From Candidatus Sericytochromatia bacterium (lineage in GTDB: Bacteria; Cyanobacteriota; Sericytochromatia; S15B-MN24; UBA4093), in contig JAKFCT010000080.1 in assembly GCA_036676495.1 (NCBI GenBank), positions 32,001 to 96,000 on the forward strand: a stretch of 64,000 nucleotides of DNA, given 5' to 3'. Positions 5,715-47,039 of the stretch are shown in pieces; position 1 is the stretch's first letter; the number at the start of each line of letters is the position of its first letter. The position numbers and the translations under genes are program-made. The notes under the pieces were generated by a model, which saw only the letters and a program-made list of their open reading frames with translations, had not been told where the DNA came from and did no database searches.

Positions 5715-6088
5715 TCGACGCCCCTTCTTTATCAGCTGGTTTGATTCCGCGACTCCGGGCTCGACCTTGCTGGACCGTGCTTCGACGCCGGGGACAAGCC
5801 TTCGCGCGCCCCGTGGAACCCCTGTCGAAAGCAGGAACGATGTCAGATTGTCACGTCAAGCAGGTTTTCTGCTTGAATCCTGGACCTGCCATTTGTAACA
5901 AATCTTTTCGATTCATGCAAATACACGATTGAAGGTTGCGCGCAGGGAGGGGCAGCCCTCGGCATGCTTCGGCAGGCGTTTTGCCAGGCCAAGGGAAAGC
6001 AGGCGAGTGGCCGGCTGGGGCGGATTGGGGCGGATTGGTGCAGGTGCTTTGACGGGCAGGGCGCGTCGTGCGTCTCAGGGGACGGGCG

Positions 6089-31418: not shown

Positions 31419-32590
<1,172 letters not shown>

Positions 32591-39751: not shown

Positions 39752-39785
39752 AAAAAGGAACAGGCCCCTCGGCAAGAGGGGCCTG
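39752..39785 (-). terminator. Rho-independent terminator with its U-tract on the minus strand
   Basis: CAGGCCCCTC-N5-GAGGGGCCTG followed on the minus strand by TTCCTTTTT; no T-tract on the plus strand. Confidence 0.75.
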
Positions 39786-40070
39786 CAATGCTACCGGATG
39801 TTGGACTATCGGATGAAAGAGCCAGAGATCGCTTGCTCTCGGCAATTTTAATTAAGTCCTCACCAAGTAGGCTTACCTTTGACCGTCAGTACACCATTTC
39901 CTTCTTAAGAACCACCTTTCTATTCAAACGAACTGAAAGCTGTCTTAGAAAGGTCCTCCTTTCGGGTGCAGAACGGATCGACACTTGTTGGGGCGGAAAC
40001 CTCTACCGAAGGGCCGGCTCATCATTAGTTGAGCACGCAATTGGCGCGCATCGGGTGGTTTCGCTCCAAG
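39752..40070 (-). ncRNA. Candidate structured ncRNA of about 315 nt, family unassigned
   Basis: Low-GC intergenic island with nested complementary segments, several G-U pairs that work only on the minus strand, and a minus-oriented terminator. No credible ORF. Confidence 0.6.
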
Positions 40071-40166
40071 ATGGATATACCCACTGAAACGGGTTTTTCT
40101 TGTGATCTGCACCACCAATTTGAAAGTTTTTTTGGGTCGCCTCGCGAAGCCCGGGCGCTAGCCGCG

Positions 40167-40195
40167 TTGACAAGCGGAGGGGGATCCCTTAGAGT
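40167..40195 (+). promoter_or_regulatory. Sigma70-type promoter of iscS
   Basis: TTGACA-N17-TAGAGT. Confidence 0.75.
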
Positions 40196-40204
40196 GAAGG
40201 CGGC

Positions 40205-40229
40205 AAATCAGACCATTTTGGTCGGGTTT
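40205..40229. promoter_or_regulatory. IscR/Rrf2 type-1-like operator
   Basis: AAATCAGACCATTTTGGTCGGGTTT: 25 bp with a GAC-N7-GTC core, resembling the IscR type 1 box, just downstream of the promoter. Confidence 0.65.
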
Positions 40230-40288
40230 TGTCGCCGGAGCGCCCGGCCTCGGCGCCGTCCCCCGTTTCGATCGATCTTCGGCCGGCC

Positions 40289-41452
40289 ATGATCTACCTC
40301 GACCATCACGCCACCACTCCCGTGGACCCCCGGGTCCTCGAGGCGATGCTTCCCACCTTCACCACGCTGTACGGCAACGCCGCCAGCCGCAACCACGCCT
40401 TCGGCTGGGCTGCCGAGGAAGCCGTGGAGCAGGCCCGCAGCCAGGTGGCGCGGATCCTCGGGGCCACGGCCAAGGAAATCGTCTTCACGTCCGGGGCCAC
40501 GGAGTCCATCAACCTCGCCCTCAAGGGCGCCGCCGAGATCTACGCCCCCAAGGGCAAGCACCTGATCACCACCGCCGTCGAGCACAAGGCCACCCTGGAC
40601 ACCTGCGCCTACCTCGAGACCCAGGGCTTCCGCGTGACCGTCCTGGGCGTCGACCGCTACGGGCGCGTCCGCCCCGAGGAGCTCGAAGCGGCCCTGACCC
40701 CCGAGACCCTCCTCTTCTCCGTGATCCACGGCAACAACGAGGTCGGCACCCTTCACGACCTGGCCGAGCTCGGCGCGATCTGCCGCGCGCGGGGCGTGCT
40801 TTTCCATGTGGACGCCGCGCAGACCGTGGGCAAGGTGCCGATCGACGTCGACGCCATGCGTATCGACCTGCTCTCACTCTCCGGCCACAAGCTCTATGCC
40901 CCCAAGGGCGTCGGCGCCCTCTACGTCCGGCGCAAGAGCCCCCGCGTCCGCCTGGCCCCCCAGATGCACGGCGGCGGCCACGAGCGGGGCCTGCGCTCGG
41001 GAACCCTCAACGTGCCGGGTATCGTCGGCCTCGGGAAGGCCTGCGCGCTCGCCATGGCCGAGATGAGCGAGGAAGCCGCCCGCGTCGGAGCCCTGCGCGA
41101 TCGCCTCTACCAGGGCCTCCTGGCCGCCCTGCCGGGCGTCGCCCTTAACGGCCACCCGATCGACCGCCTGCCCGGAAACCTCAACGTCTCCTTCGAGGGA
41201 GTCGCCGGCGAGAACCTCATGAGCGGCCTCGCGGGGATCGCCGTCTCCTCGGGCTCGGCCTGCACCTCGGCCAGCCTCGAGCCCTCCCACGTGCTTTCGG
41301 CGATGGGAGTGCCCGATGCCTTGATCCATGGGTCGATTCGCTTCGGCCTCGGCCGCGGCACGACCGAAGCCGAGATCGACCGGACGCTGGAGATCGTCGT
41401 CGGCCAGGTTCGCAAGGTCCAAGAGGCGTCCCCTCTCAAGCTCGCGCCTTAG
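40289..41452 (+). CDS. iscS: Cysteine desulfurase (group I)
   Basis: [36 protein letters not shown]. Confidence 0.95.
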
Positions 41453-46527: not shown

Positions 46528-46661
46528 TGGGGGCGTCTCCTGTGTGAAGGGCTCCCGGCCCCGTGCCGGGAATGGTTGTCGAAATCTAAAGAATTAGTGA
46601 ATTTCTGCTTGGGAGTCAAGTATAACTGATTCATGGTAAGAAAGAACCATGGGAGTGGCAG

Positions 46662-47039
46662 ATGACGCGCAAGCTGGTCTTGATAATCGATGACGATCCG
46701 GATATCCGCGACCTGGTGCGGATGAGCCTCGAGACCGTGACAGGCTGGACGGTCCTGGTGGCCGCATCGGGCGCGCAGGGAGTCCAGACGGCGCGGGAGC
46801 GGAGCCCCGATGCCATCCTGCTCGACGTGAGGATGCCGGGCCTGGATGGGCCTTCCACTTTCCAGGCGCTCCGAGAGCATGCCGTCACGCGGGACATCCC
46901 CGTGGTCCTGCTGACCGCCAATCCGCAGGCCGACGAGCGCTACCGGGCCTCGCTGAGGCTTTCGGGCATGATCGTGAAGCCGTTCGACCCCTTTGCGCTC
47001 CCCCACCGCATGGCCGACCTCTTGGACTGGACCATATGA
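46662..47039 (+). CDS. Single-domain response regulator
   Basis: IIDDD, LLDVRMP, LTA, KPF. Confidence 0.92.
   Translation: MTRKLVLIIDDDPDIRDLVRMSLETVTGWTVLVAASGAQGVQTARERSPDAILLDVRMPGLDGPSTFQALREHAVTRDIPVVLLTANPQADERYRASLRLSGMIVKPFDPFALPHRMADLLDWTI

Follow-up and report, generated by a model that had tools for sequence, protein, structure and literature searches.

In this work we ask what is encoded in a 560-bp gap that separates two plus-strand genes in the genome of a Candidatus Sericytochromatia bacterium (GenBank assembly GCA_036676495.1, contig JAKFCT010000080.1, forward-strand positions 32,001 to 96,000; this whole stretch of 64,000 nt is referred to below as the window, and its coordinates are used throughout). 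Positions 39841-39960, which lie within the gap, contain 40.8% G+C, the lowest 120-nt value across the 64-kb window (mean 66.8%, standard deviation 4.8), in agreement with the dip to about 41% recorded in a preliminary description of the locus made from the sequence alone. That description had also put forward the idea that an independently transcribed non-coding RNA (ncRNA) of a new class is encoded here on the minus strand. We show that the element is a single-copy, three-domain gene for a structured ncRNA of approximately 316 nt on the minus strand, and it very probably represents an independent ncRNA of a new family. Its 3' domain recurs alone as shorter RNA genes in the same order, which makes the window gene the long form of an uncatalogued modular RNA family. 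The uncultured, non-photosynthetic Sericytochromatia are sister to the oxygenic cyanobacteria, and a literature search, judged by titles and the beginnings of abstracts, found no description of regulatory RNAs from them. An RNA of more than 300 nt with several domains, covariation support and no known family is also uncommon.

Structure of the minus-strand RNA gene

The predicted parts of the gene are as follows, helices being given with the strand that is 5' in the RNA first.

40074..40082, minus strand: promoter-like box made of GGG and the -10-like hexamer TATATC (40079-40074), GGGTATATC; identical or near-identical in 7/7 long forms
39752..40067, minus strand: predicted non-coding transcript of ~316 nt, bounded by the box and the terminator
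39988..40069, minus strand: 5' domain, in the window genus only; closing helix 40057-40067 / 39990-40001 and internal hairpins, from the consensus fold
39881..39979, minus strand: central domain, closed by 39972-79 / 39881-87 and 39965-70 / 39890-95
39955..39963, minus strand: Shine-Dalgarno-like nonamer GAAAGGAGG with no start codon behind it
39790..39874, minus strand: 3' module and core of the family, an irregular hairpin in which three helices stack, with two internal-loop strands that are conserved and an apical hairpin that varies
39867-72 / 39790-94, 39861-64 / 39797-39800 and 39855-59 / 39803-07, minus strand: the three module helices
39821..39843, minus strand: apical hairpin of the module, invariant within the genus and of other sequence and length in other family members
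39752..39786, minus strand: intrinsic terminator with an 11-bp stem (39786-39760, 8 G-C pairs), a 5-nt loop and a U-tract

From the position of the box, for which the preliminary description had noted a GGGTATA motif, we infer a transcription start at about 40067±2. At the other end, a terminator scan found the T-run on the minus strand only, as had been noted in spite of both flanking genes lying on the plus strand, and the terminator stem is paired in 100% of cells across five sequences, with one pair changed on both sides. Alignability between homologues ends at the terminator and upstream of the box.

Seven long homologues carry the comparison. Five belong to the window genus (the window genome, G001, G002 and the metagenome loci L020 and L021), and two shorter ones belong to a sister genus (G003 and G006). 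BLAST and covariance-model searches located the element in 3/3 genomes of the genus and initially in 0/24 other genomes of the order; it is single-copy in the window genome, and the family model R2, run with filters off, matched nothing in the window besides the element itself. An exact-pattern scan of metagenome contigs returned five loci, two of which, L020 and L021, were true homologues; the remaining matches (L017-L019) were rejected as chance, as they lie inside G+C-rich, coding-looking sequence and lack a model match. The same scan of the genome collection returned two loci with model scores equal to those of L002 and L003, and they were taken as G002 and G001 again. The sister-genus copies are diverged and only ~235 nt long, and were found via synteny, with position and orientation both matching those of the window form. 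With nhmmer and a five-sequence profile the sister-genus copy reached only E=0.16, a lead then confirmed by synteny and covariance models: for models built from the window genus only, the two copies were the best non-self matches, with E values of 0.0012 and 0.015 in 6.4 kb and of 0.00084 and 0.0018 in 87 kb. They share with the window form the box, the GAAAGGAGG word, the central closing helices, the 3' domain and the terminator, and they lack the 5' domain. This domain is also the most variable part within the window genus (70-86% identity). The syntenic site has no room for the RNA in G005 and G008, and synteny is different in G004. As the RNA itself is 79-90% identical between homologues, compared with 86-88% for the neighbouring coding gene, no claim of exceptional sequence conservation is made.

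Support for the fold comes from compensatory changes. Across the seven long forms, 93.3% of cells pair in the core common to both genera and 24/56 pairs change on both sides, compared with 6.7±2.2 in shuffled alignments (0/500 reach the observed value) and 3-7 when the partners are slid. For the 5' closing helix and the terminator, aligned with MAFFT over the five genus sequences, 93.1% of cells are paired and six pairs change on both sides (shuffles 2.1±1.1, 1/500 reaching this; 0-2 when slid). The closing stem of the 5' domain, which had been drawn almost exactly so in the preliminary description, accounts for 3/10 double-changed pairs with 94% of its cells paired in that alignment. Both central closing helices, likewise proposed beforehand, persist in the sister genus, where compensatory changes maintain them, and the hairpin at 39821-39843 also held. 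A further helix proposed for the same rod, 39864-68 with 39983-87, was lost: all five pairs form in the window, but only 1/5 to 3/5 do so in the four relatives, and it clashes with a covarying helix. The perfect 9-bp helix 39914-22 / 39946-54 stood in part, being complete in the window and retaining 8/9 pairs in the five genus sequences, but none of its pairs changes in a compensatory way and the sister genus lacks an equivalent. Its suggested competition with an alternative hairpin was borne out, in that the minimum-free-energy (MFE) and consensus folds both choose this hairpin plus a mid-helix. The lack of compensatory change and of a sister-genus counterpart leaves the idea of a conformational switch unsupported.

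Cells with G·U pairs on the minus strand outnumber those with A·C (30:5 in the core, 6:2 in the 5' domain and 3:0 in the terminator), which identifies the minus strand as the folded one and extends the earlier remark that several pairs are G-U on that strand only. Single-sequence folding energy is unremarkable for either strand and does not separate them (z of -2.37 for minus and -2.96 for plus). No reading frame of at least 25 amino acids is common to the five genus sequences. The antisense frame of 99/107 amino acids in the window was rejected as a gene: it is broken in all four relatives, and its 99-residue form has no Pfam match. There is also a three-codon frame, ATG-GTG-TAC-stop at about 39897-39886, and the possibility that it or another micro-ORF encodes a very small peptide was considered. 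Its three codons and stop are kept in 5/5 genus sequences, with one sense change (Val to Thr) and a change of TGA to TAA. However, these positions are taken up by the 3' strand of a covarying helix, the purine-rich run before the ATG ends only 1-2 nt from it, the sister genus has no counterpart and no longer frame is conserved. A peptide product is therefore barely conceivable.

The element was also weighed as something other than RNA, either a DNA-level regulatory region (a shared promoter or operator) or the remnant of a decaying gene or mobile element. It does adjoin a divergent promoter with a conserved palindrome, described below, and it is A+T-rich in the manner of promoter regions; yet a DNA site would not be expected to show compensatory changes, an excess of G·U over A·C or a conserved terminator, and the element is single-copy, conserves no frame and is represented by contigs in RNA libraries. 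This explanation is in our opinion extremely unlikely.

These contigs come from three public RNA libraries (two studies; compost and soil) that share a few short words with the window. Each library contributes one short contig, of 251, 182 and 158 nt, aligning to 39796-39986, 39856-40034 and 39856-40008, respectively, with 5-10 differing letters; judged by their sequence, they resemble copies of the RNA from relatives. Five more aligned pieces measure 36-78 nt and fall on 40372-40449 inside the aminotransferase gene to the right; their many differences and loose ends on both sides make them look like other organisms' homologues. None of the eight aligned pieces lies on the deacetylase gene to the left or bridges the RNA into either flanking gene. 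Parts of the stretch left uncovered in these libraries carry no evidential weight. The contigs are a hint of an abundant, discrete transcript, given that they show neither strand nor ends and that DNA may be present in RNA libraries.

The element does not belong to a catalogued RNA family. At gathering level, Rfam 15 gave no match in the window, and at E values up to 10 only chance-level matches appeared, the best sub-threshold one being mir-980 (19.8 bits against a gathering cut-off of 47). No Rfam match was obtained at eight loci, six of which hold the short forms described in the next section; a short form searched against Rfam yielded only terminator-like chance matches. ARAGORN found neither tRNA nor transfer-messenger RNA (tmRNA) in the window. 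The familiar structured RNAs, whose motifs were noted as absent from the element in the preliminary description, were each located above cut-off elsewhere in the genome: 6S RNA on contig C29 (84.3 bits), tmRNA on C47 (130.9 bits), RNase P RNA on C10 (262.6 bits) and signal recognition particle (SRP) RNA on C34 and C75 (68.1 and 63.1 bits). The RNase P RNA match (G000:C10:89109-89643) spans 535 nt against a model of 367 positions and may carry a large insertion. The RNA-polymerase-binding 6S and Ms1-like RNAs, which are abundant, resemble the window RNA in being structured, a few hundred nucleotides long and transcribed (putatively so for the window RNA) as units of their own; in contrast to them, the window RNA is multi-domain rather than a rod with a central bubble, and the canonical 6S RNA is accounted for. 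Box and terminator, covariation, G·U asymmetry, the lack of a conserved open reading frame or Rfam family, the location of the housekeeping RNAs elsewhere, and library contigs confined to the element together lend good support to the earlier proposal of an independently transcribed ncRNA of a new class.

The 3' module and its short forms

To place the element within its class, a covariance model (R3) was built from all seven long forms. Among 47 genomes of the class, 11 matched at E<=1 and eight were accepted; the accepted set leaves out G004 (E 0.07, partial) and G041 (E 0.66). The match in G044 was rejected because, on reading the sequence, no terminator follows it and it falls within an open frame that has a histidine-kinase-like motif. 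Six further loci with the module were thereby added, in G002, G003, G005, G006, G021 and G023, which represent two families of one order; the window genome and G001 hold the long form only. The six loci encode short forms that are little more than the 3' module, extending ~107-148 nt before their terminators. All six carry a GGG+NANNNN box 6-9 nt before the module and their own terminator directly after it, and their flanking genes are mutually unrelated.

Taking long and short forms together, the box is found at a fixed place, without a -35 element, in 13/13 family members, and a stem-loop with a T-run follows the module in all 13; the eight members outside the genus set each have their own terminator at the equivalent place. 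Over the 13 copies of the module, 91.7% of helix cells pair, as against 33-51% when the partners are slid. Changes on both sides affect 6/14 pairs, with 21 such cells compared with 8.7±2.7 for shuffled alignments (0/500). Conservation extends to the sequences of the helices and of both internal-loop strands; the apical hairpin is free in sequence and length. On this comparative evidence the 3' third of the predicted RNA recurs as a module in shorter RNA genes at other loci, a relationship that was invisible to the author of the preliminary description.

The family is narrowly distributed, with 13 copies in one order. In a search of reduced sensitivity (16 candidates scored per genome, with stricter filters), R3 had no match among 104 genomes from the rest of the phylum, and a degenerate pattern of the module, run over the 47 class genomes, hit five genomes, all of them already known. 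We therefore describe a new RNA family of an ordinary kind of gene, a small RNA (sRNA) or ncRNA with a putative promoter and a terminator of its own, whose modular multi-domain build is unusual. This build, in which the core occurs alone or with added domains, offers a handle for finding the partner of the core, and the narrow distribution limits the present weight of the finding.

Several points weigh against this account. No -35 consensus lies upstream of the box in the long forms, and the final base of the hexamer there is C or G, not T. G001 breaks 3/6 of the inner closing pairs of the central domain, and the interior pairs of that domain are weakly supported, be it as hairpin plus mid-helix or as the 9-bp helix 39946-54 / 39914-22. 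The evidence base consists of 13 related sequences, all from one order, and the alignments of the core and of the 13-copy module were fitted to the model structure, so that they lean towards pairing. Since the core alignment had been fitted in this way, a correspondence table was made by hand from two independent alignments; in this cross-genus table, the outer central helix and two of the module helices have compensatory changes. Finally, the library contigs are strandless, and both transcript ends are predictions from the sequence.

Possible modes of action

The nonamer GAAAGGAGG is invariant in 6/7 long forms and keeps 8/9 bases in that of G006. It is a perfect complement (9/9 pairs) of the 3' end of the 16S rRNA of the window genome, and no ATG, GTG or TTG follows 5-10 nt downstream of it in either genus. 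As it is missing from the short forms, the nonamer cannot explain the family core. For the latter, we propose that a protein or other ligand common to the family would bind to the module, with its invariant helices and internal-loop strands as the platform. To this the long form would add a domain carrying its start-codon-less complement of the 16S 3' end. A core of the binding-platform type combined with such a complement suggests that the RNA most likely acts in trans via a partner, rather than by coding or by control in cis. Taken as a whole, a new modular ncRNA family with trans-acting partner binding is in our judgement the probable explanation of the locus.

The preferred partner would be the 30S subunit, through the tail of its 16S rRNA. 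Binding of 30S could shield the RNA from RNase J, which is encoded in the genome (569.7 bits, cut-off 400), in the manner of a stabilising Shine-Dalgarno (STAB-SD) element, or the RNA could hold ribosomal subunits. STAB-SD in the 5' UTR of Bacillus thuringiensis cry3Aa is a Shine-Dalgarno-like sequence, not placed before a start codon, that is reported to stabilise the mRNA by binding 30S (PMC12970973). The likeness lies in a start-codon-less word complementary to the 16S 3' end, which in STAB-SD is proposed to bind the 30S subunit and so block ribonuclease. In contrast to STAB-SD, the nonamer here is inside an ncRNA. Three observations speak against 30S binding: the MFE and consensus folds place six of the nonamer bases within the stem of a local hairpin, the distance of the nonamer from the inferred 5' end is ~105 nt, whereas a stabiliser of this type would be 5'-proximal, and the short forms are without it. 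Based on the sequence complementarity, the STAB-SD precedent and the presence of RNase J, we rank binding of 30S or another partner first among the mechanisms and put it forward tentatively, as a possibility that is on the unlikely side when taken by itself. If the nonamer truly engages 30S from within an ncRNA, translation or RNA stability would be influenced by an unusual route. Distinctly more speculative, and improbable in this full form, is the idea that the module is a new fold recruiting one specific partner, that the long form is a ribosome-subunit-binding ncRNA tuning translation capacity, perhaps together with the divergent Fe-S and tRNA-modification genes, and that the family is peculiar to non-photosynthetic relatives of cyanobacteria.

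The main rival to partner binding is a base-pairing sRNA, in which single-stranded stretches, either the loop strands of the module or the nonamer, would pair with mRNAs and alter their translation or decay, and the module would act as a handle for stability or a chaperone. Like trans-encoded sRNAs, the RNA has its own promoter-like box and terminator; the members of this multi-copy family have the 3' part in common and differ in their 5' parts, and the consensus leaves the conserved loop strands unpaired. The conserved part of the RNA is nevertheless a structured module and not a short seed, and Hfq was found in none of the five genomes searched. A duplex search against the 5' regions of the iscS-like gene (G000), of mnmG (G000) and of mnmG (L020) gave results equalled by 38/100, 28/100 and 15/100 shuffles, respectively. 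We consider this rival unlikely. Yfr2-type sRNA families of cyanobacteria have several related genes per genome with a conserved core. The present family resembles them in having related genes around a conserved core within the phylum Cyanobacteriota, but differs in that its core is an 85-nt structured module and not a short unpaired motif, in the absence of matches to cyanobacterial Rfam families and in the R3 result of 0/104 outside the class.

The preliminary description had suggested a protein sponge, which for CsrA would mean an RNA of the CsrB/RsmZ type whose AGGA loop hairpin and other GGA sites sequester the protein. CsrA is encoded above the Pfam cut-off in 5/5 genomes, and one hairpin conserved in the window genus displays AGGA in its loop; as in CsrB and RsmZ, this GGA hairpin sits in a multi-hairpin ncRNA with its own terminator and, putatively, promoter. 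Unlike those RNAs, the window RNA is not enriched in GGA and has no Rfam Csr/Rsm match. The five genus forms contain 4-7 GGA per ~317 nt, compared with 4.9-5.8 when shuffled (133-409 of 500 shuffles do as well), and over all seven long forms the count is 3-7 per RNA against 4.2-5.8 in 500 shuffles, of which 133-423 reach the observed value. Only one GGA falls in a predicted loop, the AGGA hairpin is not kept in the sister genus and the module has no consistent GGA. Moreover, fliW lies directly beside csrA in 5/5 Sericytochromatia genomes (in the window genome at G000:C23:33737-34284), the protein-antagonist arrangement of Bacillus, for which we know of no sponge RNA. Titration of CsrA is thus very unlikely, and the sponge proposal was not sustained. 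Synechococcus, used as a control, encodes neither fliW nor csrA.

Gene context of the locus

The window genome (G000) is a 4.1-Mb assembly in 106 contigs with an estimated completeness of 91.9%. The genes on either side of the RNA are the following.

Up to 39732, plus strand: LysM/polysaccharide deacetylase gene, left neighbour
From a start near 40229-40290, plus strand: class-V aminotransferase gene (cysteine-desulfurase-like, iscS-like), right neighbour, followed by gcvT

Further to the left of the deacetylase gene in the window, mnmG is encoded on the minus strand. The RNA is divergent from the cysteine-desulfurase gene or operon at 7/7 long-form loci. On its other side, mnmG is directly downstream on the same strand in G001 and L020 (2/5 genus loci), and a convergent deacetylase gene intervenes in the window, G002 and L021 (3/5). 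Where mnmG follows, in L020 and L022, it has its own TATAAT box past the RNA terminator. The comparison shows an ancestral arrangement in which the RNA gene lies between the promoter of a divergent iscS-like operon and a separately promoted mnmG. A conserved box, GGGGAGATATAATGC, is situated 3' of the RNA terminator (L020:4320-4350, L022:6375-6395) and is probably the mnmG promoter.

These arrangements bear on a further explanation, that the element is a cis-acting leader or riboswitch whose module senses a ligand and whose terminator gates a downstream gene, ancestrally mnmG. As in terminator-type riboswitches, a conserved, aptamer-sized fold is followed at once by an intrinsic terminator; the loci with mnmG on the same strand fit this explanation, and for some of the short forms the next gene on the same strand begins 50-150 nt further on. 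It is countered by the convergent deacetylase gene, which stands downstream in the window itself, and by the separate promoter box of mnmG. Unlike such riboswitches, the family has no consistent downstream gene: behind the short forms lie unrelated genes, for an AMP-binding enzyme, an EF-hand protein and a short-chain dehydrogenase/reductase, and no alternative pairing between the 3' strand of the module and the terminator was seen by eye. Control in cis is accordingly a highly doubtful explanation, and action in trans is still preferred.

Several further observations concern the divergent operon. The aminotransferase operon has a near-consensus promoter, TTGACA and TAGAGT separated by 17 nt (within 40167-40232, plus strand). 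Just past it, at about 40205-40232, is a palindromic, hairpin-like site that is kept in 4/5 genus loci; a similar site occurs in G003, G005 and G008, and it is probably an operator of the Rrf2/IscR type. By sequence reading, the cysteine-desulfurase gene of sister genera is immediately preceded by a gene for an Rrf2-type regulator (L027:2690-3113, L029, L030 and L032), whereas the window genus, compared over 40100-40290, has no Rrf2-type gene at this locus though the operator-like site is retained. Between the divergent promoters, at 40106-40125, a run of seven A followed by TTTC (minus-strand reading) is conserved in the window genus, and G003 carries a similar A6-GTTTC. The orthologous aminotransferase gene of G002 (G002:C21:94105-95316, L025) contains one in-frame TGA in a tblastn-type match, which could reflect an assembly error, a frameshift or recoding.

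With mnmG as a neighbour, a replication origin was considered as well and rejected, as the cumulative GC skew falls steadily without a turn and no conserved DnaA-box-like word was seen by eye. Two other A+T-rich spots of the window, at 5811-5950 and 46561-46710 (120-nt G+C <=47%), resemble ordinary promoter-bearing intergenic regions.

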